From the IMG/VR virus record IMGVR_UViG_3300045988_083426: a DNA stretch of 42,045 nt; one strand, given 5' to 3'. This DNA is from a virus. Positions 289 to 42,045 of this stretch are shown here, piece by piece. The notes beneath the pieces were generated by a model. That model worked only from the letters and a program-made list of their open reading frames with translations. It had not been told where the DNA came from and ran no database searches. A program made the translations under genes and the position numbers. How positions within the stretch are numbered: position 1 is the first letter of the stretch; every line of letters starts with the position of its first letter.

Positions 289-393
289 ATGGACAACAGG
301 AAGGTATTGATAGACGCAATCCTGCGCCTGCTGGCGCTGGCCGACGCGGAGCAGCTGCGGCTGGTGTATATCGCGGCGCTGAACTTGATTTAA
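289..393 (+). CDS. 34-aa microprotein, family copy 1 (MDNRKVLIDAILRLLALADAEQLRLVYIAALNLI)
   Basis: ATG lies 1 nt after the xre stop. Same length as, and about 20/34 identical to, the ORFs at 37681 and 38191. Confidence 0.55.
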   Translation: MDNRKVLIDAILRLLALADAEQLRLVYIAALNLI

Positions 394-14854: not shown

Positions 14855-15265
14855 ATGGCACAGGCCAAGCTGAGCGAAAAGCGAAAAAAGAAGATCATCG
14901 CGGACTACGCGGTGGAGGGTAGCTACCGGGCGGCGGCACGGAAAAACGGCGTGAGCCCGAACACGGTGCGGCGGCTGGTGCTGGCGGATCCGGAGAGTGC
15001 GCGGGCTGCGCAGGACAAAAAAGGCGCGTGCGCGCGCGATATATTGAGCTACATGGACGGGCAGAGGGACACCGTGTGCAGCATCATCGGCACAGGACTG
15101 GAGGTTCTGTCGAGCCCTGAGCGGATGGCGACGGCGAGCCTGCGCGACATCACGACGGCGATCGGCACGCTGATCGACAAGTGGACGATGGCGGCGCAGG
15201 CCGGACGCAGCCGCGAGCCGATCACGATCGAGATGCCCGAGAAGGCGAAGGAGTACGGCGAATGA
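14855..15265 (+). CDS. terS: Terminase small subunit (136 aa)
   Basis: N-terminal HTH (YRAAARKNGVSPNTVRRL). Directly upstream of, and coupled to, terL. Confidence 0.7.
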   Translation: MAQAKLSEKRKKKIIADYAVEGSYRAAARKNGVSPNTVRRLVLADPESARAAQDKKGACARDILSYMDGQRDTVCSIIGTGLEVLSSPERMATASLRDITTAIGTLIDKWTMAAQAGRSREPITIEMPEKAKEYGE

Positions 15266-27587: not shown

Positions 27588-30500
27588 ATGAGCGATTTTC
27601 TGAAACGGAGGATTCAGGAGCGCGACGAACAGCGGCGGGGCACGCAGGAGACGAGCGCGCCCGCCAGCTCGTTTTTGCAGCAGCGGATCCAGCAGAGGGA
27701 CACGCAGCGCGCGGAGAGCGGCTACCGCGCGCCGACGGGGACGCACAAGACGATGCTCGGCATGTCGCTCGAGGAGTACAAGGCCAAGCTCGACGAAGCG
27801 CTGGCGGCATGGAAGAGCACAAGCGCGACGACGGAGAGCGGCCTTGCAAACCCGAAGGAGGCACAGGCGCGCAAAACGTATCAGACGATGCGCAAGCAGT
27901 ACAAGGCCCTGCAGCAGCGCGAGAGCGAGAAGCAGCAGGCGCAGGCGGCGCAGCAGGAGTATGACGAGCTGCGCGTCGCAGACCTGAACGCGCTGAAGGC
28001 AAAGATGGACGCGGCGAAGGAATCGGCGGACGGCTCGGCGAAGGAGCGCGTCGTCGCGGGGAGCATCGTCAAGCAGAAGGACTCCGGCGCGCAGGCCGCC
28101 TATGAGGAGGCGGCGCGCAAGTATAACCTCGCGCAGCAGATCCAGTACGACGAGCGCGGCGCACAGGCGCTGGGCAAGCTCTCGGAGGAGGAAGCGGCGG
28201 CGGTCGACACGCTGGCAAAGAGCACAAACAAGGGGCGGAAAACGGACATCGTGGGCGCGGGGATCATCGACGAAATGCGCCGCAAGGCAACGAAGGTGCT
28301 CACGGACGCGGGGTACAGCGCGGAGGAGATCGACGAGCTGGCGAACTGGCGGGCGCGCCAGCAGAACGCGCAGAAGTATGACGCGGCGGTGGAAAAACGC
28401 GAGGCGCTCGCGGACAAGGGCCTCTGGGGCGCAGCGGCGGCGACGGCGCTGTCCGTGCCGGAGACGCTGCTGAGCGGCATCGGCGTGATCGACGTCGCCG
28501 TCCAGAACTACGAAAACCGCGGGACAGACCGCCCGGCGGATTACAAGCGCACGGCGATGCTGCCATACGCCATGGCGACGGCGGGGCGGAGCACGATCTC
28601 GAACAAGCTCGAACAGAACACCGACGCAGAGATCTTCGGGCAGAACGTCGCGGCGGGTGCTTACAACATCGGGACGAGCGTGCTCGATTCGACGGCGGTG
28701 GCGGGGCTGGCCGCGCTGGGCGTGCCGCCGCTGGCGGCGACGTCGCTGCTCGGCGGCGCGGCGGCGACGAGCGCGATGGTCGACGCGAAGGATCGGGGCG
28801 TTTCAGACGAGCAGGCAGTGCTCACGGGCCTTGCGGCGGGCGTGGCGGAATCGCTGTTTGAAGAAGTGTCTCTTGAGAAACTGCTCAAGCTGAAGCCGGC
28901 GGTCGGGACACTGGGGCAGCGAGTGCGCACGACGATCAAGAACGTGGGATTGCAGGCGGCGACGGAGGGCTCGGAGGAGTTCTTCACGACGCTGGCGAAC
29001 ACCATGACGGACAACCTGATTAACGGGGGACTGAGCGAATTCCAGCAGAATCTCCGGGGCTACATGGAGCAGGGGATGAGCGAGGAGCAGGCCCGGCGGC
29101 GCGCGTATCTGGATCTCGCGGGACAGCTGGCACTCGACTTCGGCGGCGGCGCCATCGCGGGCGGATTGATGGCGGGCGGACAGACGGCCATCCAGACCGG
29201 ACAGCGCAACGCGGCGATTGCGCAGGAGTACGGCGACATTGCGCGCGGCGCGGCGCAGGAGCGGCTTGAGACAAACGAGGGCGACCGGCTGGCGCAGGAC
29301 GTACAGAACCGTGTAAGCTCCAACCGGCGGGTCGGCGGCGGGGCCATCGCGGAGCTGGTGAGCCGAAACGTACAGGCGCAGAACGCGCAGACGCAGACGG
29401 CCATCGCGGAAGCGGCGGCGCAGCGGCTGACGGAGCTGGGCGAGACGGAGAACGTGGAGACCGTCGCGCAGGCGGCGGCGCAGCTGACGGCGGACCCGAC
29501 GATGAGCGCGGGCCGACGCCGGGCGGCGGAGAACGTCCTGAAGGGCAGCCGGTACGGCGAGCGCGTGCTCGGCGAGCTGACGGAGGGGATGCAGGCCGAC
29601 AGCGCGGAGAGCGCCCCCGCCGCGGTGCAGGAGCAGAGCGCCGTGCCGAGCGCGGAGCAGGTGCGGCAGGCCGTGGAGAGCACCCAACGGAGCCGGGGCG
29701 CGCAGAACCTGACGGAATCGCGCGGGGGCGAGGAGCGCACGCAGAGCGGGCGGCGGTTCGCGTCCGAATGGGCGGGGAACCTGCCGCAGGTGCTGACGGA
29801 GGACGCCTACGTCCGGCGGCTGAAAGAATTGCGCGTGAATCCCCAGGCGACGGACAGCCGGACGGTGACGGGCACGGCCTACAACAAGGAGAGCGGCAAG
29901 CTCGACGTGATTGTCCGGGGTACGGACGGCAAGGTGGAGACGATCCCGGCGGCGAAGGCGGCCACTACGGCGCGGCAGGAGCGGCTCATGGAGCTGGCGG
30001 CGGACGTGGGCGAGGCGGGGCCGCAGATGTTCGCGGCGATCCGCGACGGGCAGGACGTGGAGACGTATGCACGGCAGTGGAAGAACGCCTACACCTACGG
30101 CGAGAGCAACATCCCGCGCGCCTACGCGATGCAGTCGGACGCGGTGAAGTATCTGACGGCGGAGCAGCGGGACATCGCGTATGAAGCGGGAAAGGCCGCC
30201 TACGACCAGAAACAGACCAAGGCGCGCACGAAGCGCGCGGCAAGGGGGAACGATACCCACAAGGCAAAGAAGGGCACTGTGAAGCTCACAGGGGCCGTTA
30301 TCGGCGGCAAGCGGTATGACGGGGTGAGCAAAGCGTCGCTGACGGAGCGGCAGCGGGCGAACCTCAAGGTGCTGGGGCAGGTCGCGCAGGCGACGGGCGT
30401 TGACATCGTGCTCTATCAGAGCCGGGCGAACGCGCGCGGCGAGTACGAGGGGCAGAACGGCGCCTACAAGGACGGCACGCTCTATCTCGACATCAACGCG

Positions 30501-33500
30501 GGGAGAAACCGCGTGGGGGATCTGAGCGAGGTGGCCGTGGTGCGGACGGCGGCGCACGAGCTGACGCACTTTATTCAGGACTACAACCCGGCGGCTTACG
30601 CAGAATACCGCGATTATGTGGTGGGGCTGCTCACAGAGGAGCAGGGCATGGACTTCGACGCGCTGGTGGAGCACAAGCAGGCGCTGCAGAACGACCTGAG
30701 CTATGACGAGGCCGTGGACGAGGTGGTCGCGGACGGCAGCGAGATGCTGCTGCGCGACACGGCGGCGGTGCAGCGGCTGGCCGAGGAGAACCGGGGGCTG
30801 TTCCAGAAAATCCGGTCGTGGCTGCGCAAGTGGCTCGAGAACATCAAAAAGGCGTTCGACGGCGTGGGTGCGGAGCACGCGGAGGCAAAAGCGCTCGAAA
30901 AGCATCTCGAGGAGCTGCAGAAGCGCTGGGACGACGCGCTCGTCGGCGCGTCGCGAAATTTGCAGAGGAGCAGGGCGGAAGCGGAGAGTGCCGGCGAGAA
31001 AGCGTCCGTGCGTGGAAAATACTGGCGGCCGGATCTCAATCGGTCGGAATGGAATCTTCTGAACCGGCGGCTGGAGGAAGAAATCGAAAGTTCCGGACAG
31101 TATATTGACGAATCGACGAAATGGCTGTATGCTGATGAAAAAGGCGTACAGGTGTTCGCTTTGTACGGCATCGGTGACGGCACGGAGGCCACGCCGCTGT
31201 ATGCGGTTGGCGGGAAGCAGGCCAGATATGCGGCATCCCTTATGCAGGATGTTATTGAGGAGGTTGGAAGAAGTGACGGAAACGCAGAAGGATTTGATTC
31301 ATGGGCTGAAAATCTTCGGAGCAAAAACGGGAACTATCGTAGAAATTATGCTCAGGCTGGAGACGGAAAGCCAGCAGGAAGAAATGCTGGGCTACATGGT
31401 AGATCACAGGGACGCAACACCGGAAAGCCTGCTGGAGATGGCAAGGGCAAGTCGTCCGGCGTAAGGGAAAAGTTCTCCCTGCGAGACAGCGCGGGGCGCG
31501 AGCTGACGGCGGCGCAGCAGGAATACTTCCGTGACAGTCAGGTGCGGGATGCGGACGGGAATCTGCTGGTCATGTATCACCAGACAGAGGGCGCGTTCAC
31601 AGTGTTCGATACCCGGCACAAGGGCGCGGGAACCGGCGACGATGAAACGCCGTTCGGCATCTTCCTGAAACGGACGGCGCGGGATATCGGCGTTCGCGGA
31701 AAGAACCAGATGGAGCTTTACGCGAACATCCGCAACCCGCTGCGCGTGCGTGATCGCGCGGAGCTGGTCGAACGGCTTCGCGAGCTGTCCGGAACATACG
31801 CGGAGCTGAAAGACCAGTCGGGGAAGATCGACAAGGAATACGGCGCGAAGTTCGCAGAAGCGAAGGCCGCTTTCAAAAACTTCCTTTTGCAGTGGCGCAA
31901 GGAAAACCCGGATGCACCGAGCCGGGCGGCCTATGACGCGGAAGGTTTTGATGCCGCATTCGACGCAGAGGACAACGTGGTAAAGGAATGGACGCAGAAG
32001 AAAGACGAGCTTGCGCTGCGTGCGAAAGAGGCCATTACCGACGCGCTGCGCAAAAACGGCTATGACGGCGTGATTCTGGAGAGTGACCGTGGCAGCTGGG
32101 GGCGCAGCACGGATGCCTACATTGCGCTGGACGCGAATCAGGTGAAGAACGTCACGAACCAGAACCCGACGGAGGATCCGGACATCCGGTATTCCGCGCG
32201 GGATTATGGGTTGACGGAGGACGAGGAACATGCTATCGTCAGTTATAAGTCGGGCGACAGCTACGCGCTGAACGGGAAGCTCGCGACCGGCGGGAAGCTG
32301 ACAGAGCTGCAGAGGTCGCTGCGCGACCATCTGGACACGGCGCTGGAGAAGCTGCCGGTCTACAAAGGAACGGTGTACCGCCACTACGACTTCGACTCTT
32401 TCGGCGGGTACGAGGCAATGGCGGAGTTCCTGTCGCAGTTCGCAAAGGGCAGAGCTGTACCGATGAGCAGTTATCTGTCGGCCAGCACGGTGCGCAACGA
32501 GGATCGGACGAACGGCGAGTATACGGTCGACATGGTGATCCAGTCTGAGACGGGACGCAGCCTGAACGGTTTCGGTCGGGATACAGAGAACGAGGTGCTG
32601 CTGTCGAGGACGACCGAGCTGATCGCCGATTCTATGGAGCTTATCAGCCCGCACAAAGTGAGAATTACAGCACGGGAGGTTGTAAAAAATGGAACAGGAA
32701 CGGCCGCCGATTCTGCATCAGTTGGTGTGCGCGACGTGCGAGAAAGCGAACAGAGAACTGACGGATTGCGACAAGTATCCGGACGGAATCCCGGAGGAGT
32801 ACAGACGGAAAGTGGAAGGTCTGCCGGACGAGACGGGGACGCCGGATTGTCCGGACTACGAGAGGGAACACGATCCGGATCGCTGGGTGAACCCGGAGTG
32901 GAAAGCGATTATCGAGCAGCTGAGGAAGGGCTGAAATACCAGCCGAGGGAGCAGAGCGTGAGCGACCGGCAGATTCTGGCGAACGCGCTGGAGCGCGTGG
33001 CGCAGAACGAGCGGGAGAGGTCCATTCTCGCGGACTACCGGGAGAAGGCCGCAAAGATGGCCTTTTATGAGAGGGAGCTGGCTAAGCGCGAGCAGAAGAT
33101 CGCCGACCACCGCAGCGGAAAGGCCGTTCTCGAGCCGGACAAGCTCCGGCGGGCGGAGGTCTCGGCGCAGAAGTACGCCGCGCTGATCAGCCAGCAGGAC
33201 GAGCGGCTGCTGCGGCTGGAGAAGCTCAAGCCGCTGCGCGACGTGGTGACGCGGGAGCGAGACTACATCGCCGAGCGGCTGCGCGGCGCCGCGGAGGAGA
33301 AGAGCCGCTACACGGCGGAATTCGAGCGGCAGCTGAGCGAGGAGCGCAAGCGCGGCGAGGAGCGGCTGCAGCAGTACCGCAAAGGCCGCGAGGAGCGCGA
33401 CGACATCCGCGTGGAGCGGCGGCAGATCGAGAAGCTGGCGAAGCGGCTGACGACGTATCTCGAGGAGAACACGGACAAGAAGCACATCCCGGAGGCGCTG

Positions 33501-36500
33501 AAAAAGCCGATCGGGGAGCTGCTGCAGTCGCTGGACTTCTCGTCCAAAACAAAGCTCTCGTCCGGGGCGGCGACGAAGACCGACCTCGCGTACATCCGGT
33601 CGATGCAGCGGATCGAGGCCGTACTCGCGGCGCAGGAGCGGTTCGACGAGACGGGCGAGGGCGGCGACCTGATCACAGGGACGCTGGATCTGCCGAAGGG
33701 CTTCCGCGAGGCGCTGGCGGAGCAGATCGAGCGGGTACAGACGATCATGGAGACGCACCAGCCGGGCGAGCGCGCGGTCATGCGGATGAATCTCGCCGAC
33801 CTGCGGAAGCTGCGGGTGATGCTCTCGACGCTCTCCAGCGCGGTGACGAAGATGAACGAGCTGTTCGCAAACGGGCAGTTCCGGCACGTCGATCAGGCGG
33901 CGCAGGACACGATTTTTACGCTGCGCGAGAAGGGGCAGCACCAGTCGCTCCTGCCGAAGGTCGAGAGCTTCGTCCGGTGGGACAACACGCTGCCGTGGTA
34001 CGCGTTCCAGCGGCTGGGCGAGGGCGGACAGTCCATCTTCGCGGAGCTGCAGGACGGCTGGGACAAGCTGGCGTTCAACACGCAGAAGATCCTCAAATTC
34101 CGCAAGGAGCTGATCGACGACAAGACGGCGCGCAAGTGGGACACGGAGGTACACGAGGTCGAGCTGACCGACCAGGACGACAACACCGTCAAGGCGAAGC
34201 TGACGACGGCACAGCTGATGAGCCTTTACTGCCTCTCGCGGCGCCGGCAGGCGCTGGGGCATCTGCTCGGCGGCGGCATCCGGCCGGCGGATATCGAGCT
34301 GACGGCGAACATCAAAGACAAGGTGCTGAAAAAGACCGAGAAGCAGGACACGCACTATCACCTGACGGACGAGCGGCTGGGGCAGCTGCTGGGTCTGCTG
34401 ACGGACGAGCAGCGCGAGATCGCGCAGAAGATGCAGAAGTACATGACGGAGCAGGGCGCGACGTGGGGCAACGAGATCACGATGGCGCGCTGGGGCTACC
34501 GGGCGTTCACGGAGGAGAACTATTTCCCGCTGACGACCGACCGCGAGGACCGGCCCGCCCGCGCGGACGACGCGTCGGAGGGAAGTCTTTACCGGCTGCA
34601 GAACATCTCGGCGACGAAGCCGCTGACGCAGAACGCGAACAACGCGGTGATGCTCTACAGCATCTTCGACGTGTACGCCGACCACATGGCGGACATGGCC
34701 AAGTACAACGCGATGGTGCTGCCGATCCTCGACGCGCAGAAGTGGTACAACTACAAGGAAGGCCACAAGAACGAGGCGGGGCAGGTGAGCACATGGACGG
34801 TGCAGCGGACGCTGACGCAGGTTTACGGGCGGGACGCGAACCGGTTCGTGATCCAGTTCCTGAAGGACCTGAACGGCGTGAAGGAAAACGGCGCGCGGGG
34901 CGAGGGTCTCGCGAAGAAGATGATCTCGAACTACAAGCGGGCAGCGGTCGCGGCCAACCTGCGCGTGGCGCTGCTGCAGCCGACGGCGTATGTGCGCGCG
35001 TCGGCGGTGCTGGACGCGAAGTATCTGACGCGCGCCTTCGGCGAGCGGACGAGCACGAAGGAAGCGACGGCGGAGATGCTGGCGCGCAGCGGCATCGGCC
35101 TGTGGAAGAGCATGGGCATGTTCGACACGGACGTCGGCCGGAGTATCCGCGACCAGATCAAGGGCAAGGGCAGCGCGGTGGAATCGCTCGTGGACAAGAC
35201 GATGGTGCTCGCGGAGAAGGGCGACAGCATCACATGGGCGCGGCTCTGGCGCGCGTGCAAGCTGGAGGTTCAGGACAAGCAGCACCTCTCGGGCGAGCAG
35301 CTGCTGGACGCGACGGCGAAGCGGTTCCGCGAGGTGATCTACCGGACGCAGGTGATCGACAGCACCATGACGCGCAGCCACATGATGCGCTCGGGGTCGA
35401 CGTTTGTGGCGATCTTCACGAGCTTCATGTCGGAGCCGACCGTCTCCTACAACCTCATCATGACGGCATCGGAGAAGATCTGGGAGGACACGAAGAAGTA
35501 CGGCGCGAAGATGGCCGTGAAGCGCAACTGGAAGACGGCGGGGCGGGCGTGGCAGGCGTACATCCTGTCGGCGGTCGCGTCGGCGATGGTGGAAGCGCTG
35601 GCGGACGCATGGCGCGATCCGGGCGACGACAAGGACACGCAGAAGCTGCTCAACGCCTTCCGCGACAACCTCGGAAGCGACCTGAACCCGCTCAATAAGC
35701 TGCCGGGCCTGCGGGACATCTTCTCGATTTTCGAGGGATACGACACGAACCGGACGGACATGGCGGCGTTCAGCAACCTGAACAAGGCCATCGCCATCTG
35801 GAAGGAGACGATCCAGCTCGCAAACGGCACGATCGACGAGGCGACGGACACGACGTACCACGGGAACATGACGATCTACGGCAAGGTCTATAAAACGGCG
35901 CAGGCGCTGTCGCAGCTGAGCGGACTGCCGGTGTCGGCGACGATGCGCGAGGCGCAGGCGCTCTGGAACAACACGGTGGGCCGGTGGGCGCCGGGGCTGA
36001 AACAGAAGACCTATGACAACGAGAAGCAGCGGCTCATCCAGAAGGCCGGAACGGCCATGTGGAACGGAGACAAGGACGCATGGCAGGATGCATACGCGGC
36101 GCTGGAGCAGTACATGCTCGCAGACGGCAAGAGCAAGCGCGAGGCGGAGAGCGCCGTCTACAGCGAGATGCGCAAGGCCGTGAAGGATTCCTATCTCGCG
36201 GGCGAGCTGACGGAGACGGAAGCGCGGCAGAAGCTCGTGGACTTCCTCGGATCGGACGCGGAGAAGGCCGCGCAGCAGGTCACGAGCTGGAAGAATGGCT
36301 CGGAGTTTGCGAAGGAGGTCGGGTTCGAGTACGGCGAGATGCGCAGCGCCTATGAGACGGGACGGATCCAGAAGAGCGAGGCGGTGCGCCTGCGCCAGAA
36401 GTACGGCGGCGAGACGCAGGACGAGGCCGAGAGCAAGGTGCGGTACTGGGATTTCTGCATCGAATATCCGCAGTACGACGACATCAGCGAAGCGCGGGCG

Positions 36501-36743
36501 AACAAGTACTACGACTACTGCCGGCAGGCGGGCGTGGGCGTCGCGGCGTATTACAAGGCGGCGCAGTACACGGCGGCCATCGTGAGCGAGAAGGACGAGG
36601 ACGGCAACAGCGTCTCCGGCTCGGTCAAGCGGCAGTACGTGGAGTACATCCAGTCGCTGGGGCTCTCGGCAGCGCAGCAGAAGGCGCTGTGGCAGGCGCT
36701 GAAAAACGCGACATGGAGCGACAAGGGGACGCCGTGGGAGTAA
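27588..36743 (+). CDS. Giant polyvalent virion protein (3051 aa) with HExxH metallopeptidase and ADP-ribosyltransferase motifs
   Basis: One uninterrupted frame. AAHELTHFIQ at 30555-30569 (H990). ART R-S-ExE triad: VYRH (R1598, 32379), YLSAST (S1631, 32478), ENEVLL (E1667 and E1669, 32586-32594). Confidence 0.8.
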   Translation: MSDFLKRRIQERDEQRRGTQETSAPASSFLQQRIQQRDTQRAESGYRAPTGTHKTMLGMSLEEYKAKLDEALAAWKSTSATTESGLANPKEAQARKTYQTMRKQYKALQQRESEKQQAQAAQQEYDELRVADLNALKAKMDAAKESADGSAKERVVAGSIVKQKDSGAQAAYEEAARKYNLAQQIQYDERGAQALGKLSEEEAAAVDTLAKSTNKGRKTDIVGAGIIDEMRRKATKVLTDAGYSAEEIDELANWRARQQNAQKYDAAVEKREALADKGLWGAAAATALSVPETLLSGIGVIDVAVQNYENRGTDRPADYKRTAMLPYAMATAGRSTISNKLEQNTDAEIFGQNVAAGAYNIGTSVLDSTAVAGLAALGVPPLAATSLLGGAAATSAMVDAKDRGVSDEQAVLTGLAAGVAESLFEEVSLEKLLKLKPAVGTLGQRVRTTIKNVGLQAATEGSEEFFTTLANTMTDNLINGGLSEFQQNLRGYMEQGMSEEQARRRAYLDLAGQLALDFGGGAIAGGLMAGGQTAIQTGQRNAAIAQEYGDIARGAAQERLETNEGDRLAQDVQNRVSSNRRVGGGAIAELVSRNVQAQNAQTQTAIAEAAAQRLTELGETENVETVAQAAAQLTADPTMSAGRRRAAENVLKGSRYGERVLGELTEGMQADSAESAPAAVQEQSAVPSAEQVRQAVESTQRSRGAQNLTESRGGEERTQSGRRFASEWAGNLPQVLTEDAYVRRLKELRVNPQATDSRTVTGTAYNKESGKLDVIVRGTDGKVETIPAAKAATTARQERLMELAADVGEAGPQMFAAIRDGQDVETYARQWKNAYTYGESNIPRAYAMQSDAVKYLTAEQRDIAYEAGKAAYDQKQTKARTKRAARGNDTHKAKKGTVKLTGAVIGGKRYDGVSKASLTERQRANLKVLGQVAQATGVDIVLYQSRANARGEYEGQNGAYKDGTLYLDINAGRNRVGDLSEVAVVRTAAHELTHFIQDYNPAAYAEYRDYVVGLLTEEQGMDFDALVEHKQALQNDLSYDEAVDEVVADGSEMLLRDTAAVQRLAEENRGLFQKIRSWLRKWLENIKKAFDGVGAEHAEAKALEKHLEELQKRWDDALVGASRNLQRSRAEAESAGEKASVRGKYWRPDLNRSEWNLLNRRLEEEIESSGQYIDESTKWLYADEKGVQVFALYGIGDGTEATPLYAVGGKQARYAASLMQDVIEEVGRSDGNAEGFDSWAENLRSKNGNYRRNYAQAGDGKPAGRNAGLHGRSQGRNTGKPAGDGKGKSSGVREKFSLRDSAGRELTAAQQEYFRDSQVRDADGNLLVMYHQTEGAFTVFDTRHKGAGTGDDETPFGIFLKRTARDIGVRGKNQMELYANIRNPLRVRDRAELVERLRELSGTYAELKDQSGKIDKEYGAKFAEAKAAFKNFLLQWRKENPDAPSRAAYDAEGFDAAFDAEDNVVKEWTQKKDELALRAKEAITDALRKNGYDGVILESDRGSWGRSTDAYIALDANQVKNVTNQNPTEDPDIRYSARDYGLTEDEEHAIVSYKSGDSYALNGKLATGGKLTELQRSLRDHLDTALEKLPVYKGTVYRHYDFDSFGGYEAMAEFLSQFAKGRAVPMSSYLSASTVRNEDRTNGEYTVDMVIQSETGRSLNGFGRDTENEVLLSRTTELIADSMELISPHKVRITAREVVKNGTGTAADSASVGVRDVRESEQRTDGLRQVSGRNPGGVQTESGRSAGRDGDAGLSGLREGTRSGSLGEPGVESDYRAAEEGLKYQPREQSVSDRQILANALERVAQNERERSILADYREKAAKMAFYERELAKREQKIADHRSGKAVLEPDKLRRAEVSAQKYAALISQQDERLLRLEKLKPLRDVVTRERDYIAERLRGAAEEKSRYTAEFERQLSEERKRGEERLQQYRKGREERDDIRVERRQIEKLAKRLTTYLEENTDKKHIPEALKKPIGELLQSLDFSSKTKLSSGAATKTDLAYIRSMQRIEAVLAAQERFDETGEGGDLITGTLDLPKGFREALAEQIERVQTIMETHQPGERAVMRMNLADLRKLRVMLSTLSSAVTKMNELFANGQFRHVDQAAQDTIFTLREKGQHQSLLPKVESFVRWDNTLPWYAFQRLGEGGQSIFAELQDGWDKLAFNTQKILKFRKELIDDKTARKWDTEVHEVELTDQDDNTVKAKLTTAQLMSLYCLSRRRQALGHLLGGGIRPADIELTANIKDKVLKKTEKQDTHYHLTDERLGQLLGLLTDEQREIAQKMQKYMTEQGATWGNEITMARWGYRAFTEENYFPLTTDREDRPARADDASEGSLYRLQNISATKPLTQNANNAVMLYSIFDVYADHMADMAKYNAMVLPILDAQKWYNYKEGHKNEAGQVSTWTVQRTLTQVYGRDANRFVIQFLKDLNGVKENGARGEGLAKKMISNYKRAAVAANLRVALLQPTAYVRASAVLDAKYLTRAFGERTSTKEATAEMLARSGIGLWKSMGMFDTDVGRSIRDQIKGKGSAVESLVDKTMVLAEKGDSITWARLWRACKLEVQDKQHLSGEQLLDATAKRFREVIYRTQVIDSTMTRSHMMRSGSTFVAIFTSFMSEPTVSYNLIMTASEKIWEDTKKYGAKMAVKRNWKTAGRAWQAYILSAVASAMVEALADAWRDPGDDKDTQKLLNAFRDNLGSDLNPLNKLPGLRDIFSIFEGYDTNRTDMAAFSNLNKAIAIWKETIQLANGTIDEATDTTYHGNMTIYGKVYKTAQALSQLSGLPVSATMREAQALWNNTVGRWAPGLKQKTYDNEKQRLIQKAGTAMWNGDKDAWQDAYAALEQYMLADGKSKREAESAVYSEMRKAVKDSYLAGELTETEARQKLVDFLGSDAEKAAQQVTSWKNGSEFAKEVGFEYGEMRSAYETGRIQKSEAVRLRQKYGGETQDEAESKVRYWDFCIEYPQYDDISEARANKYYDYCRQAGVGVAAYYKAAQYTAAIVSEKDEDGNSVSGSVKRQYVEYIQSLGLSAAQQKALWQALKNATWSDKGTPWE
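31273..31464 (+). CDS. Nested alternative-frame ORF 1 (63 aa) inside the polyvalent gene
   Basis: GAGGAGG (31257-31263), 9 nt, then GTG. VTETQKDLIHGLKIFGAKTGTIVEIMLRLETESQQEEMLGYMVDHRDATPESLLEMA. GC3 about 60% versus about 38% for the host frame over the same nucleotides (hand count). Confidence 0.5.
   Translation: MTETQKDLIHGLKIFGAKTGTIVEIMLRLETESQQEEMLGYMVDHRDATPESLLEMARASRPA
32689..32934 (+). CDS. Nested alternative-frame ORF 2 (81 aa, Cys-rich) inside the polyvalent gene, right after the ART domain
   Basis: GGGAGG SD 8 nt before the ATG. CATCEKA...CDKYPDGIP...CPDYE. GC3 about 74% versus about 41% for the host frame (hand count). Confidence 0.55.
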   Translation: MEQERPPILHQLVCATCEKANRELTDCDKYPDGIPEEYRRKVEGLPDETGTPDCPDYEREHDPDRWVNPEWKAIIEQLRKG

Positions 36744-36932
36744 AACTTCATCAAAGGCCACGGCCTTTGATGAGTAAGATTCGCTCCGAACCGCGCGTTT
36801 CCGTGCGTTGAACGCACGGAAACACACTCTCTCCGCGCAAGGTGTTTTTTGCGACGTACACGCCGCCGCAAAAAACGATTTGACTTTATTCGCGCCGCTG
36901 CGGCGGCGAGAACTCTGCGAGACATGAAATGA

Positions 36933-36961
36933 CAGCCCCGGAGGGATAACCTCCGGGGCTG
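36933..36961 (-). terminator. Terminator of the DUF2283-like gene
   Basis: cagccccggagg / cctccggggctg, a 12-bp stem directly 3' of the minus-strand stop at 36972. Confidence 0.65.
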
Positions 36962-36971
36962 TTGTGGGTAT

Positions 36972-37226
36972 TCAGGACTTTATCTTTTGAAGGAGCGTTC
37001 CGACAGAGAACGGAAGAGGGGGCAGGGTATTTGACCGGTAGCGCTTCATGAAGTCTAAAACGGTTACACCCGTCAGTTCGTCCGTGTCGATGTCCCTCAA
37101 GTAGATAATACCAGCTTCGCTGTCGTCACCATAGGAATTGTCTCTATCTCCAAGGGCGACATACAGAACGTCGTATTTGGCATCGTAATCAAATTGCAGG
37201 CTTGCCCTCTGCGACATATAATGCAT
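36972..37226 (-). CDS. DUF2283-like protein (84 aa)
   Basis: LQFDYDAKYDVLYVALGD...GIIYLRDIDTDELTGVTVLDF matches the DUF2283 pattern (YD.e.D.lyi.l...G..i). Confidence 0.65.
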   Translation of the reverse strand: MHYMSQRASLQFDYDAKYDVLYVALGDRDNSYGDDSEAGIIYLRDIDTDELTGVTVLDFMKRYRSNTLPPLPFSVGTLLQKIKS

Positions 37227-37281
37227 CTCCCTTCGAGCTGCCGCTGCGCGGATTTTTAGAGGTTTCCCTCACGGCAAATCT

Positions 37282-37310
37282 ATTCTACCACGAAGGAGAC
37301 CTCCAGACAA
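37282..37310 (-). promoter_or_regulatory. Promoter of the DUF2283-like gene (R element copy 1)
   Basis: -35 TTGTCT (37305-37310), 17-nt spacer, TG-extended -10 TAGAAT (37282-37287). Confidence 0.6.
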
Positions 37311-37329
37311 GAAATTTTTGGATTAGGGG

Positions 37330-37370
37330 TTGACAAACGTATCCACGTAATATATTATAAACGTGGATAC
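37330..37370 (+). promoter_or_regulatory. Promoter/operator of RHH gene 1
   Basis: -35 TTGACA (37330-37335), 17-nt spacer, -10 TATTAT (37353-37358). Perfect inverted repeat GTATCCACGT (37339-37348) / ACGTGGATAC (37361-37370) brackets the -10. Confidence 0.7.
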
Positions 37371-37388
37371 GGAAATGGAGGTGAACAT

Positions 37389-37559
37389 GTGTCTCCTAAA
37401 GGACGGCCGACGGACGACCCGAAAACCCTGAATACAAGAATCCGGTTATCCGAAGAGGATACAAAGCGACTTGAGTTCTGCGCAGAAGCGCTGGGAATCA
37501 CAAAGTCGGAAGTGATTCGGCGGGGAATCAAGGAAGTCTATGACGGACTAAAAAAATAA
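37389..37559 (+). CDS. Ribbon-helix-helix (Arc/Mnt/CopG-like) repressor 1 (56 aa)
   Basis: GTG start after GGAGGT. TLNTRIRLSEEDTKRLEFCAEALGITKSEVIRRGIKEVY has a beta-strand plus two-helix RHH layout. Confidence 0.7.
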   Translation: MSPKGRPTDDPKTLNTRIRLSEEDTKRLEFCAEALGITKSEVIRRGIKEVYDGLKK

Positions 37560-37624
37560 CAGAAACGCCCGCCTGTGGAAAGTTGAGCGTTTCTGCTATT
37601 GAACCAGAGGTTTCCCAACTGGAT
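37551..37624 (-). ncRNA. Predicted antisense sRNA 1 (about 74 nt), Sar-like
   Basis: Promoter: -35 TTGTCT (37654-37659), 17-nt spacer, TG-extended -10 TAGAAT (37631-37636). Intrinsic terminator CAGAAACGC...GCGUUUCUG followed by UUAUUUUUU. Antisense to the 3' end of RHH1 and the downstream spacer. Confidence 0.55.
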
Positions 37625-37790
37625 AAATTCATTCTATCACAGTGGGAGCCTCCAGACAAGAACTATTTTGGAGGTTTATTATGGAAAATCGAATCACGCT
37701 GTTGGAGCAGATCGAGAGACTGCTGGCACTGGCCAGCGAGGAGCAGCTGCGGATCCTGTATGTGGCCGCGCTGTACCTTGTGTAAGGGGG
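37604..37790. repeat. R element copy 2 (about 187 bp direct repeat)
   Basis: About 5 mismatches against 38114-38300. Contains the leftward promoter and the 34-aa ORF. Confidence 0.9.
37681..37785 (+). CDS. 34-aa microprotein, family copy 2 (MENRITLLEQIERLLALASEEQLRILYVAALYLV)
   Basis: GGAGG SD 6 nt upstream. Identical peptide at 38191; the two nucleotide differences between the copies are both synonymous. Confidence 0.6.
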   Translation: MENRITLLEQIERLLALASEEQLRILYVAALYLV

Positions 37791-37834
37791 GTGGCGGTTG
37801 AACCGACACCCGCATAATTTTTTCAAATTAGGGG

Positions 37835-37873
37835 TTGACTTTTGTACGGACGTAATATATTATTTATGTACGG
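37835..37873 (+). promoter_or_regulatory. Promoter of RHH gene 2
   Basis: -35 TTGACT (37835-37840), 17-nt spacer, -10 TATTAT (37858-37863). TGTACGG direct repeats flank the -10. Confidence 0.65.
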
Positions 37874-37892
37874 GCAAAAGTGAGGTGATTGC

Positions 37893-38069
37893 ATGTCCCC
37901 GAAAACAGGACGCCCGACCAGCAACAAGAGAACCAAACGGCTTGAAATCCGGATGGCACCTGATGAAGCGCAGCTCCTTCAGGAGTGCGCGGATGAACTT
38001 CAAGTGTCGAAAACGGAAGTAATCGTCAAAGGAATTCGACTTGTGAAAGCTGAGTTGGAAAAGAAATGA
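37893..38069 (+). CDS. Ribbon-helix-helix repressor 2 (58 aa)
   Basis: MSPKTGRPTSNKRTKRLEIRMAPDEAQLLQECADELQVSKTEVIVKGIRLV, an RHH layout. N-terminal MSPK..GRPT is shared with RHH1. Confidence 0.7.
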   Translation: MSPKTGRPTSNKRTKRLEIRMAPDEAQLLQECADELQVSKTEVIVKGIRLVKAELEKK

Positions 38070-38134
38070 GCGCATGGGCTACAGCTTGCAGGCACACCCA
38101 TACGCTCAAAACACCAGAGGCTTCCCAACTGGAT
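38058..38134 (-). ncRNA. Predicted antisense sRNA 2 (about 77 nt)
   Basis: Same promoter as sRNA 1: -35 at 38164-38169, -10 TAGAAT at 38141-38146. Terminator GAGCGUAUGGG...CCCAUGCGCUC followed by AUUUCUUUUCC. Confidence 0.5.
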
Positions 38135-38300
38135 AAATTCATTCTATCACAGTGGGAGCCTTCAGACAAGAATTATTTTGGAGGTTTATTATGGAAAATC
38201 GAATCACACTGTTGGAGCAGATCGAGAGACTGCTGGCACTGGCCAGTGAGGAGCAGCTGCGGATCCTGTATGTGGCCGCGCTGTACCTTGTGTAAGGGGG
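38114..38300. repeat. R element copy 3
   Basis: Near-identical to 37604-37790. Confidence 0.9.
38191..38295 (+). CDS. 34-aa microprotein, family copy 3
   Basis: Same peptide as 37681-37785. Ends 12 nt before the ant start codon. Confidence 0.6.
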   Translation: MENRITLLEQIERLLALASEEQLRILYVAALYLV

Positions 38301-38307
38301 TGGCGGC

Positions 38308-39069
38308 ATGAACGATCTGACGGTGTTTCAGAACCCGGAGTTCGGGGAGATCCGCACCATCGAAGAAAATGGCGACGTGCTGTTTTGTGGAACTGATGTT
38401 GCAAAGGCGCTGGGGTATATTAACCCGCGCGATGCAGTTGGGAGACGCTGCAAAGGCGTCGTGAAACGCGACGCCTATACAAATAGGCGACAGACAATGT
38501 CCTTCATTCCGGAAAGCGACCTGTACCGGCTTGTATTCGGCTCGAAGCTGCCGTCCGCGGAACGCTTCGTGGACTGGGTGACGGAAGAAGTCCTCCCCAG
38601 CATCCGCAAGACCGGGCGGTACGAAGTCCAGCCGAAGCCCATGACGATGGCCGAGAACGTCGCGGCGCAGGCGCAGCTGCTGGTGGAGCAGGAGCAGCGC
38701 ATCGCGCGGATCGAGGAGCGGGTGGAGACGGCGCTGACGGCCATCGCCCGCCCCAGCGGGGACACATGGGTGGAGGACATGAAGGCGGCCATCGCGGGGT
38801 ACTGCCGCGCGACGGGGCTGACGGAACCGGCGGGGCGGGGGCGGCTCTACGCGATGCTCGACCGGGAGGCCAGCTGCAATACGGACGCCCGGCTCCGGCG
38901 GCTGCGCCAGCGGCGGAAGGAGACGGGGGAGCGCCGGCGGGACTACATGGCGCTCACGAAGCTGGACGCCATCGCAGTGGATCAGAAGCTGCGGGTGGCC
39001 TTTGAGGGGCTCGTGGCCCGGGAAAACGCCCGCGCCGCGCAGAAGGACGAAATTGCCAAGCGCTTGTGA
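38308..39069 (+). CDS. ant: Antirepressor with BRO-N domain (253 aa)
   Basis: LTVFQNPEFGEIRTIEENGDVLFCGTDVAKALGY...SFIPESDLYRLVFGSKLPSAERFVDWVTEEVLPSIRKTG is the Bro-N/AntA signature. Confidence 0.85.
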   Translation: MNDLTVFQNPEFGEIRTIEENGDVLFCGTDVAKALGYINPRDAVGRRCKGVVKRDAYTNRRQTMSFIPESDLYRLVFGSKLPSAERFVDWVTEEVLPSIRKTGRYEVQPKPMTMAENVAAQAQLLVEQEQRIARIEERVETALTAIARPSGDTWVEDMKAAIAGYCRATGLTEPAGRGRLYAMLDREASCNTDARLRRLRQRRKETGERRRDYMALTKLDAIAVDQKLRVAFEGLVARENARAAQKDEIAKRL

Positions 39070-39077
39070 ATATGGAG

Positions 39078-39120
39078 AAACAGCCCGGCCTGTGGGGAGA
39101 AAAACCACCGGCCGGGCTGT
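39078..39120 (+). terminator. Stem-loop after ant
   Basis: aacagcccggcc / ggccgggctgtt, a 12-bp stem. Confidence 0.6.
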
Positions 39121-39133
39121 TATACTGTGGAGG

Positions 39134-39259
39134 ATGAAGGGAGGGAGAGACCATGTATCGAGGAACGATGTAATCATCAGTTCTTCTACCGAGGGCTCTA
39201 ATAAGAAGTTCAAGATTTCAGTGGACGATACAGGCGCAATCTCCGCAACGGAAGTATAA
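39134..39259 (+). pseudogene. Possible remnant small ORF (41 aa)
   Basis: The ending ...KFKISVDDTGAISATEV is protein-like, but the ATG abuts the SD with no spacing, so it is probably a truncated relic. Confidence 0.25.
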
Positions 39260-40850: not shown

Positions 40851-41876
40851 CTACTTGTCCGGTGAGATCAGATCGTCGAGGGCAGATTCGATGGCGGCGT
40901 CATAGGTACGCTCGCTCTCTTTGAAAATATGCTGGTAGGTTGTCTTGAGCATATTGTTGGTGGCGTGACCCATACGCTTGATGCTGTATTTATCCGGGAT
41001 ATGCGCTTCAAGCATGACGGAGGCATTGACGTGGCGCAGATCGTGGAAGCGATAGTGCGGGACACCGGCTTTTTCGCAGACGCGTGAGAAGCCGCAATAG
41101 ATGGCGTGGCCGGTCAGGGTGGTGATATGCTCATCGGTCTGCGGGGTACGGGCGAGCAGATCGCGCAGGTAGGCGGGGAGGTGCACCCGGCGGGCGCCGC
41201 TATAGCTCTTCGGCCCCTTCTCGGCGGCGCCGTTTTCGCCATCGACGATGGCGGTATGTATGTTTACATACTCGCCGTCGATGTCCGACCAGCGCAGGCC
41301 GCGGATCTCGCTCGCGCGCAGGCCGAGACAGATGGCCAGCATGATGGGCAGCTCGTACTTCGTGCCGCGGCAGGTCTCGGCGATGGCCTGCACCTCGGCT
41401 TTGGTGGGGATCTGGATCTCGTGTTTCTCCTTCTGCGGCAGACGCGTGGTCAGCTTCACGTCCGGGCGGAACTCGGAGAGAACGGCGCTCAGAAAGCCAT
41501 GGGCATTGGCGATGGTCTTCGGGGATTTCCCAGCTTTGACCATACGGTTGACCCAGCGCTGGATAGATTCCTGCGTCAGCTCGGGCAGGAGCGTGGCGGC
41601 GATGGGCGGGAGGAGGTTCTTCCGGATCCGCTTATAGCCGGCAACGGTGGCGGGGGATAGTACGGCGTCGCGCCGCTCGATATACTGGTCAGCGGCTTCG
41701 CCGACGGTCAGGCGGCGGGCGGGCTTTCTGGCATCTTTGATACGGGTCTTGATGCCGGCGGCCCAGAACTGCGCCTCCTCGGGCGTATCGAAGGTTTCGC
41801 CGTAGCGCTGGCCGCCCACCTGCACCTGCACCCGGTAGCGGCCGGAGGGGAGCTTTTCTACTTTGGGGATTTTCAA
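40851..41876 (-). CDS. int: Tyrosine recombinase / phage integrase (about 341 aa)
   Basis: Catalytic pattern LRASEIRGLRW ... HDLRH ... GHATNNMLKTTYQH. N-terminal arm-binding-type domain (GRYRVQVQVGGQRYGETFDTPEEA). AGGAGGA SD favours the TTG at 41876 over the track start at 41897. Confidence 0.9.
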   Translation of the reverse strand: MKIPKVEKLPSGRYRVQVQVGGQRYGETFDTPEEAQFWAAGIKTRIKDARKPARRLTVGEAADQYIERRDAVLSPATVAGYKRIRKNLLPPIAATLLPELTQESIQRWVNRMVKAGKSPKTIANAHGFLSAVLSEFRPDVKLTTRLPQKEKHEIQIPTKAEVQAIAETCRGTKYELPIMLAICLGLRASEIRGLRWSDIDGEYVNIHTAIVDGENGAAEKGPKSYSGARRVHLPAYLRDLLARTPQTDEHITTLTGHAIYCGFSRVCEKAGVPHYRFHDLRHVNASVMLEAHIPDKYSIKRMGHATNNMLKTTYQHIFKESERTYDAAIESALDDLISPDK

Positions 41877-41946
41877 GGGGAATCCTCCTTTCTTCAATTA
41901 CGGGGCATACTGCCAGCATAGGGGCGGACGATGCAGAAGTCAATAC

Positions 41947-42045
41947 GCTTTTTTGAAAAGCGCCTAAAAAACTGCACGGAAAGCGGCCTGATTTCAGGCC
42001 ACTTTTGAGACAACGGCCCCAAAATATGGTAGGATGGCCGTAGGA
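41947..42045. repeat. Terminal direct repeat, copy 2
   Basis: Identical to nt 1-99. Confidence 0.95.

Follow-up and report, generated by a model that had tools for sequence, protein, structure and literature searches.

Stackable ribbon-helix-helix repressor cassettes and a repeated leader upstream of a Bro-N gene: a probable immI-like control locus in a phage of uncultured gut Clostridia

The virus record IMGVR_UViG_3300045988_083426, a stretch of 42,045 nucleotides (nt) that is referred to below as the window, carries two small ribbon-helix-helix (RHH) genes upstream of a gene with a Bro-N domain (BRO-N), and behind each RHH gene a repeated segment that holds a predicted structured leader and a small open reading frame (sORF) of 34 amino acids (aa). 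The first and last 99 nt of the window are identical (1-99 = 41947-42045), which marks it as a phage genome assembly that is either circular or terminally redundant, and the locus sits in the late region of this genome. We think that it is probably an accessory control locus resembling immI of phage P22, in a temperate phage of uncultured gut Clostridia with Oscillospiraceae-type hosts. All data are sequence comparisons of metagenomic contigs, and transcript ends are predicted. The features of the locus are given below, with promoters written as -35, spacer length in nt and -10 (SD, Shine-Dalgarno sequence).

37258-37322: leftmost, degenerate partial repeat copy, with leftward promoter TTGTCT-17-TG-n-TAGAAT (-35 at 37305-37310, -10 at 37282-37287)
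37330-37358, plus strand: promoter P_A, TTGACA-17-TATTAT, 11/12 consensus matches
37338-37348 and 37361-37371: operator O_A, perfect 11-bp inverted repeat CGTATCCACGT / ACGTGGATACG, bracketing the P_A -10
37389-37559, plus strand: RHH-A, 56 aa, GTG start, SD GGAGGTG at 37377-37383
37548-37600, minus strand: leftward terminator 1 (hairpin 37555-37600, T run 37548-37554), abutting the RHH-A stop codon
37548-37624, minus strand: predicted antisense RNA 1, about 75 nt, in a sar-like position, inferred from the leftward promoter and terminator
37603-37803, plus strand: repeat copy 1 (leader, sORF and a BRO start remnant, TTGAAC for ATGAAC), 201 nt, 95% identical to copy 2
37613-37675, plus strand: structured leader 1, with stem-loop Z/Y at 37613-37647 and an anti-SD:SD hairpin at 37648-37675 (anti-SD CCTCC 37649-37653, SD GGAGG 37670-37674)
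37631-37659, minus strand: leftward promoter 1, TTGTCT-17-TG-n-TAGAAT, found by the promoter scan
37681-37785, plus strand: sORF copy 1, 34 aa, MENRITLLEQIERLLALASEEQLRILYVAALYLV
37835-37863, plus strand: promoter P_B, TTGACT-17-TATTAT, 10/12 consensus matches
37843-37851 and 37867-37875: operator O_B, direct repeat TGTACGG(A/G)C, bracketing the P_B -10
37893-38069, plus strand: RHH-B, 58 aa, phrog_876 at 1e-13
38058-38134, minus strand: predicted antisense RNA 2, hairpin 38068-38107 with a T-rich tail (fold -31.9 kcal/mol, z -3.6)
38113-38313, plus strand: repeat copy 2 (leader 2, leftward promoter, sORF copy 2), 201 nt, 95% identical to copy 1
38123-38157 and 38158-38185, plus strand: leader 2, stem-loop Z/Y and SD hairpin
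38141-38169, minus strand: leftward promoter 2, in repeat copy 2
38191-38295, plus strand: sORF copy 2, 34 aa
38308-39069, plus strand: BRO-N protein, 253 aa, Pfam Bro-N, with an SD that overlaps the sORF stop codon (TAAGGGGG...ATG)
39079-39121, plus strand: hairpin 3' of the BRO-N gene, inverted repeat of 17 nt with 94% complementarity

A preliminary description of the region had pointed out the two small RHH genes upstream of the BRO-N gene and two near-consensus promoters of the form TTGAC(A/T)-17-TATTAT. Both genes are present at these positions with profile matches that agree, and both promoters (11/12 and 10/12) were recovered by a promoter scan, which returned seven promoter-like sites in the region against 1.6 expected. 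The inverted repeat of the first module is perfect, as had been claimed, but is 11 bp long rather than 10; it was equalled or bettered in 0.1% of shuffles. The TGTACGG direct repeats described for the second module start at 37843 and 37867 (core at 37843-37849 and 37867-37873), and the putative operators O_A and O_B are clearly different, an inverted repeat in one and a direct repeat in the other, in agreement with the same description. Related loci hold variants of both. In variant A' (L173) the two operator arms are altered symmetrically, from GTATCCACG/CGTGGATAC to GTATCCACA / TGTGGATAC, whereas variant B' (L156, L176) keeps a 10-bp direct repeat and has lost the outer ACTTTTG/CAAAAGT symmetry, which argues that the direct repeat is the conserved element of O_B. 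We looked for a second paired O_A or O_B site elsewhere in the 42-kb genome and found none; likewise, a GAAC-N4-GTTC (LexA/Cheo) box, sought in the region as a sign of SOS regulation, was not found. The sole promoter-like sites 5' of the sORF and the BRO-N gene are weak (9/12), and their -10 overlaps the sORF start codon, so that neither would be able to serve the sORF.

RHH-A matches Pfam RHH_1 at 23.5 bits (cut-off 20.5) and phrog_876, annotated 'transcriptional repressor', at 5e-15, and an identical protein is encoded on related contigs. RHH-B has no Pfam match over the cut-off and is 42% identical to RHH-A (E 1e-13). RHH-A belongs to the RHH superfamily (RHH_1/CopG) by its Pfam match, and RHH-B by its identity to RHH-A and its match to phrog_876. 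A profile built from 13 cassette proteins found ParG, ORF56 and CopG in the PDB, weakly (6e-4 to 0.6). The preliminary description had called the two proteins Arc/Mnt-type repressors, which did not hold up: neither matches Pfam PF03869 (Arc) at E below 1, and phrog_582, 'Arc-like repressor', reaches RHH-B only at E 0.05. PF03869 recognizes P22 Arc and Mnt at 104-107 bits, and Mnt has a further match to PF11423 (Repressor_Mnt). The window proteins are of the RHH_1/CopG type and stand outside the Arc/Mnt family proper.

Residues 14-97 of the BRO-N protein match Pfam Bro-N (PF02498) at 75.6 bits (cut-off 25.6, 5e-21), and the protein matches phrog_130, 'anti-repressor Ant', at 1e-45. Bro-N was the only domain found by a Pfam scan of the protein, in which KilAC (PF03374) and the P22_AR domains were absent. 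The name 'antirepressor' denotes a putative function here, reached by annotation transfer only, via PHROGs that are built on the Bro-N domain. In an AlphaFold model the N-terminal fold resembles Mbp1/APSES and the N-terminal domain of baculovirus Orf22, at low significance, and the C-terminal helical domain has a predicted local distance difference test score of 77-91; for this C-terminal domain we found no Pfam relative, no PDB sequence match and, with the model, no significant PDB fold match. The hairpin at 39079-39121 is the probable end of the operon; it has a weak T tail, and a terminator scan made no call there. More distant Bro-N genes (50-57% identity in the N-terminal domain; L014, L177, L178) are preceded by a divergent XRE-type repressor and a 54-63-aa ORF and have no RHH cassettes.

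The BRO-N protein is 100% identical on more than 20 metagenome contigs. Further loci were collected by BRO homology in viral contigs, by BRO homology in genomes of the GTDB, and by a pattern search for the repeat, and the genome records of the BRO relatives give uncultured Clostridiales and Oscillospiraceae metagenome-assembled genomes as hosts. Matches to a 14-nt core of the repeat in viral contigs (L019-L138) were at chance level and were set aside. The collected loci contain at least 12 types of RHH cassette in 15 variants. Beside BRO proteins that are 100% identical to that of the window, the following arrays occur.

A-B: the window
A: L001 and L007
A-C: L006
C-D: L002
C-D-B: L005
E followed by a 125-aa ORF: L004

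The 125-aa ORF of L004 (3982-4359) lies between cassette E and the leader and has no Pfam or NCBIfam match. Across all collected loci, 11 of the 12 types were found singly (A-C and E-L) and D in arrays only; double arrays are of eight kinds (A-B, A-C, C-A, C-D, F-B, B-C, J-K and H-K), and C-D-B is the only triple. Phages with a single cassette and an identical BRO protein are the commonest form, and the A-B array recurs beside a BRO allele of 76% identity (L186). While the two modules are indeed co-oriented, as the preliminary description had it, they do not form a duplication as such: the proteins of A and B are 42% identical, against 95% for the flanking repeat. A and B are old paralogues from a pool of interchangeable cassettes, and the recent duplicate is the leader-sORF segment. 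Comparison of the loci shows that cassettes are exchanged and stacked between related phages, and we infer that recombination within the repeated leader drives this exchange. Many of the doubles (L002, L005, L006, L011, L156, L157, L158) combine one RHH protein of class 'MSPxTGRP' and one of class 'MTEKSRAEYF...EELGK' (C-D, A-C, C-A, B-C, J-K, H-K), which may reflect chance or a functional pairing.

The cassettes share a common design, in which TTGAC(A/T) is followed by a spacer of 17 nt (16 or 18 in three variants) and TAT(A/T)AT or a near variant, one repeat copy lies between the -35 and the -10 and the other just past the -10, and an SD and an Arc-sized RHH gene of 54-63 aa, beginning about 25 nt past the promoter, come next. 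Perfect inverted repeats of 9-13 bp surround the -10 in ten variants, and no more than 0.2% of shuffles equalled or bettered them; B, B' and C' have direct repeats, 7-10 bp long, and D, H and L have shorter inverted repeats of 6-8 bp. The inferred DNA-facing residues of the β-strand vary by type (R-R-S in A, E-R-A in B, S-R-D in D and H-R-D in J). H and I have in common both the strand residues K-R and the operator core GTTCC/GGAAC, and B and B' both the strand LEIRMA and the repeat TGTACGG. That protein and operator change together is good comparative evidence that the cassettes are cognate, self-repressing repressor-operator pairs, with binding predicted.

A copy of the 201-nt repeat follows each RHH gene on its 3' side. 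The preliminary description had missed this repeat, the 34-aa ORF within it, the structured leader with its covariation and the candidate antisense unit. The RNAalifold consensus of 20 distinct leaders consists of an outer helix Z enclosing an inner helix Y, and a hairpin in which the SD of the sORF (GGAGG) is paired with an anti-SD (CCTCC). Compensatory changes were seen in 6 of the 16 leader pairs, and helix Y changes from GGTA/TACC to GATA/TATC. Helix Z is formed from different sequences: CCAGAAGGAT/ATCCTTCTGG (L172) and GAAGGAG/CTCCTTC (L183), both in independently retrieved leaders, and TCTCC/GGAGA and CCCC/GGGG. The leftmost, untranscribed copy is alone in having a mismatch at the base of helix Y (GGCA/TACC). 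In the alignment 94.7% of leader cells are paired, compared with 86.7% in shuffles (0/500 reach the observed value), and sliding the structure by 1-3 columns lowers pairing to at most 57%. Since G-U cells number 31 and A-C cells 8, the plus strand is favoured as the structured RNA (pairing of 94.7% on the plus and 87.5% on the minus strand). A C-to-U change in the anti-SD of leader 2 (CCTTCA) preserves a G-U pair on the plus strand only, and folding the window leader by itself for minimum free energy reproduces the consensus structure (z -2.7). A search of Rfam 15 gave no match at gathering thresholds in the whole window and only chance-level ones in 36900-39200.

The sORF protein is identical in its two copies, the genes differing at two nucleotides, both synonymous. 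Its family comprises 23 clusters among 1.84 billion representative proteins, and the sORF is an annotated gene on related contigs. Its stop codon, TAA, lies within the SD of the BRO-N gene, and in relatives in which an ORF of 81-86 aa replaces the sORF, the TGA stop overlaps the BRO ATG (ATGA); the BRO-N start is predicted to be coupled to the upstream ORF. What stands between the leader and BRO-N is exchangeable, being the 34-aa sORF, a 40-aa ORF or one of several unrelated 81-86-aa ORFs (L012, L013, L173, L174, L175, L183). None of these ORFs has a family match.

A leftward promoter-like site is present in each of the three repeat copies. In the leftmost copy the site is canonically spaced ahead of the SD and start codon of leftward genes; in that of L007, for instance, 7 nt separate the promoter element from the SD GGAGGTG, and a further 7 nt separate this SD from the ATG of a leftward ORF. 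Relatives that were retrieved by BRO homology have TTGACT-17-TAGAAT (L172, L183) or TTGACG-18-TATAAT (L175) at this place in surrounding sequence that has diverged, and since these loci were found only by BRO homology the promoter is not an artefact of the search pattern. On the minus strand, terminator 1 folds at -30.2 kcal/mol (z -5.7) into a 16-bp stem followed by U7, whereas the same stretch folds at -22.0 kcal/mol as plus strand. Among the hairpins 3' of RHH stop codons, the leftward tail holds 5-9 T per 10 nt and the rightward tail 0-3, with several unrelated stem sequences; the stem of antisense RNA 2 is unrelated in sequence to that of copy 1. The leftward promoter and leftward-only terminator together are a candidate counterpart of P22 sar, as predicted from their sequences.

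On balance, we favour a mechanism in which transcription from self-repressed RHH promoters continues into an sORF-BRO unit that is gated at the level of translation. By occupying the two repeats, RHH dimers would occlude a strong sigma-A-type promoter, so that each cassette represses itself. The RHH transcripts would read on through the leader into the sORF and the BRO-N gene, there being no rightward-facing terminator after the RHH gene. The structured leader would hide the ribosome-binding site of the 34-aa ORF, to which the BRO-N gene would be translationally coupled, and the leader, together with the antisense RNA of about 75 nt, would uncouple the output of the BRO-N gene from that of the RHH genes. 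Cassettes would be swapped and stacked by recombination in the repeated leader.

Several points weigh against this mechanism. Every regulatory step in it is read from sequence. Most leaders were retrieved via a pattern that fixes the -10 and -35 blocks, only about eight loci being independent of it, so that the conservation of those blocks is partly circular. Leader variants L172 and L183 have no anti-SD hairpin, relatedness among the sequences inflates the covariation statistics, and the structure was tested on its own source alignment. The T-runs of the leftward terminators are in part dictated by the Lys-Lys-stop codons with which the RHH genes end. The predicted antisense RNA, unlike sar, covers the 5' half of the leader and misses the ribosome-binding site of the sORF, and the C-terminal domain of the BRO-N protein is without a known relative.

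The preliminary description had seen in the duplicated module two independent cis locks on antirepressor expression, equivalent to Mnt and Arc of P22. Two RHH genes whose operators differ do precede the BRO-N gene, and an RHH protein bound at O_B could block transcripts from P_A as well. However, each RHH gene heads its own promoter and both feed BRO-N; two tandem self-repressed promoters that feed one downstream gene would give OR logic in cis, since the firing of either transcribes BRO-N. The pair is, moreover, not fixed (A, A-C, C-D and C-D-B all stand beside a 100% identical BRO protein, single cassettes most often), A and B, at 42% identity, are not a recent duplication, and there is no divergent Mnt-like gene. 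We consider two locks unlikely, and stacking would be better explained as a neutral product of recombination or by selection for trans-acting immunity. In the latter case, the stacked RHH proteins of a lysogen would act mainly in trans and silence matching RHH-BRO operons of incoming related phages, as Mnt does against superinfecting P22, and longer arrays would widen the protection of the lysogen from being induced by relatives; we regard this as a tentative possibility. Cassette A is found beside BRO alleles that are 100%, 76-77% and 65% identical to that of the window, and cassette B beside alleles of 100%, 70% and 67%; arrays vary combinatorially, and it is not obvious what a phage would gain in cis from extra cassettes. 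Known antirepressors can act on prophages other than their cognate ones (PMC3121763), and in P22 the frequency with which lysogeny is established is modulated by immI (PMC11016777). This case is purely inferential, though; the antirepressor role of the BRO-N protein is putative, and stacking could be a neutral by-product of recombination in the leader repeat. We would speculate along the same lines, and as tentatively, that the array is a 'key-ring' of repressor specificities, driven by recombination, that silences the RHH-BRO operons of relatives in trans and so guards a lysogen more widely against takeover by way of antirepressors, the leader being both the recombination joint and a new cis-regulatory RNA whose antisense partner helps to keep BRO-N off and the repressors on.

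The repeated leader could instead be a relic of recombination that also carries a leftward promoter, its plus-strand structure and antisense RNA having no regulatory role. By its sequence layout the leftmost copy clearly acts as a promoter for leftward accessory genes, the two variants that have no anti-SD hairpin fit such a view, and retrieval was biased to the conserved blocks. We nevertheless find it doubtful: helix Z is rebuilt from different sequences in relatives, the excess of G-U over A-C cells (31 vs 8) favours the plus strand, the mismatch in helix Y is confined to the leftmost, untranscribed copy, and leftward terminators are retained in front of every RHH gene. Another hypothesis is that the RHH proteins are antitoxins of type II toxin-antitoxin pairs, with the sORF or the BRO-N protein as toxin. 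The RHH proteins have weak NCBIfam/Pfam similarity to the antitoxins RelB, VapB and CopG, and toxin-antitoxin genes (HicA/B, BrnT/A, DUF2283-like) are found nearby. However, at 54-63 aa they have no C-terminal toxin-binding extension, cassettes are exchanged independently of the downstream ORF and may abut with no partner gene between them (A-C, C-D, J-K), and PADLOC returned zero matches, which makes this explanation highly improbable.

Two further features of the window are related to the locus.

289-393, plus strand: sORF paralogue, 59% identical (E 7e-20 to the sORF profile)
36972-37226, minus strand: DUF2283-like accessory gene, 81-84 aa, driven by the leftmost leftward promoter

The sORF paralogue starts one base past the stop codon of a 62-aa XRE helix-turn-helix (HTH) gene (99-287) and is followed on its 3' side by HicA (448-669) and a HicB-like gene (705-1151); in the database cluster P0023 the HTH protein and the sORF paralogue are fused in frame. 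The phage has two other HTH proteins, a 127-aa ORF on the minus strand within 1438-2046 and the product of 2495-2884. The idea that the sORF protein is a SinI-like mimic of the C-terminal tail of an HTH repressor was considered and found unsupported, the sORF profile finding only its own three copies in the window. Because the ends of the window are identical, the integrase gene (40851-41897, minus strand) is adjacent to the XRE HTH gene. The phage also encodes a holin, an amidase and, immediately upstream of the RHH/BRO-N locus, a 3051-aa ART-PolyVal protein (27588-36743), whose relative in L185 also matches MuF_C. The DUF2283-like gene has a weak match to Pfam DUF2283 (E 0.014) and one to phrog_36767 (1e-19) and is annotated as 81 aa on related contigs. 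The leftward slot that it occupies (36972-37322) is variable, and relatives have there a 52-aa ORF, HicB, BrnT/BrnA or a 162-aa ORF (L004, L007, L183, L185). A PADLOC scan for defence systems gave zero matches, and the phage itself is absent from the GenBank phage collection.

The control of antirepressor-type genes decides whether co-resident or incoming phages wake each other, and shapes prophage induction in polylysogenic gut bacteria (PMC3121763, PMC12629997). In the locus described here, specificities of the immunity type are visibly exchanged and stacked from one near-identical phage to another. The matched RHH-operator pairs, at least 12 on one scaffold, offer a ready-made set for studying how RHH specificity evolves and a source of orthogonal repressor-promoter parts, and the structured leader and candidate antisense RNA represent a candidate new RNA element in phages of uncultured Clostridia.

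Our literature searches returned nothing specific, and no experimental work, on RHH-controlled Bro-N antirepressors. RHH genes beside Bro-N genes are already annotated in cultured Clostridioides phages, and the pattern is therefore not new to Firmicutes phages. In phages of Clostridioides difficile (CDKM9, phiMMP03 and the phiC2 group), which are likewise temperate phages of Firmicutes, a small RHH gene ('Arc-like repressor') abuts a Bro-N 'antirepressor' gene, and in CDKM9 (L180, record 37031-38277) three small RHH genes, two rightward and one leftward, surround the Bro-N gene, so that a cultured phage may have a multi-RHH control region of a related kind. The C. difficile genes differ in lying in the early/lysogeny region beside a pRha-KilAC antirepressor, and their annotation, on which the comparison was made, does not show a repeated leader or sORF. 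CDKM9 gp46 matches PF03374 (ANT/KilAC) at 129 bits, while the window BRO-N protein has no PF03374 match. The AriS-like regulators of Listeria comK phages (AntA/AntB), which are annotated as antirepressors, combine a Bro-N or pRha N-terminal domain with an ANT/KilAC C-terminal domain, and it is the KilAC domain that carries the activity tested in them, inhibition of SOS (PMC9043618); the window protein has the Bro-N N-terminal domain that such regulators can carry and does not have the KilAC domain. The antirepressors of Gifsy and Fels prophages act in trans on non-cognate prophage repressors, and control of their expression decides cross-induction between co-resident or incoming phages, as could be the case here (PMC3121763). 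They are, however, small proteins under LexA or phage repressor, whereas the window region has no LexA/Cheo box, and there is no sequence relationship.

The closest parallel in layout is P22 immI, which modulates the frequency of lysogenic establishment (PMC11016777) and whose logic the preliminary description had recognized in the window. The annotated P22 record has, between late genes, a leftward mnt, Pant with Oarc and Omnt, arc, sar and ant; sar runs leftward (15021-15090), with its terminator abutting the arc stop codon and its promoter just inside ant. In both phages a small RHH repressor is the first gene of an operon with an operator overlapping its own promoter (in the window, at the level of architecture), an 'antirepressor'-type gene lies downstream, and the whole is embedded in the late region. 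Between the two genes both phages have a leftward-facing promoter and a leftward terminator that touches the RHH stop codon; in P22 these define sar, and in the window a predicted antisense RNA, of about 70 nt. The Arc/Pant-like layout of that description stands, and the late position and the candidate sar-like unit, for which it had not looked, can be added to it; the protein families and the Mnt equivalent do not hold up. The RHH proteins are RHH_1/CopG-type rather than Pfam Arc, and Bro-N takes the place of P22_AR_N and P22_AR_C, both of which P22 Ant matches; compared with P22 Ant by BLASTP, the BRO protein of the window reaches E = 12. A divergently transcribed Mnt is absent, the divergent gene of the window being DUF2283-like; the second RHH gene is co-oriented and has its own promoter and operator 505 nt downstream. 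The antisense RNA of the window is predicted only and leaves the next ribosome-binding site uncovered, the window adds a structured leader and a 34-aa coupling ORF, and its RHH component is a cassette that can be swapped and stacked. A sar-like layout around unrelated proteins suggests either convergence or a very old conservation of the design of the circuit.

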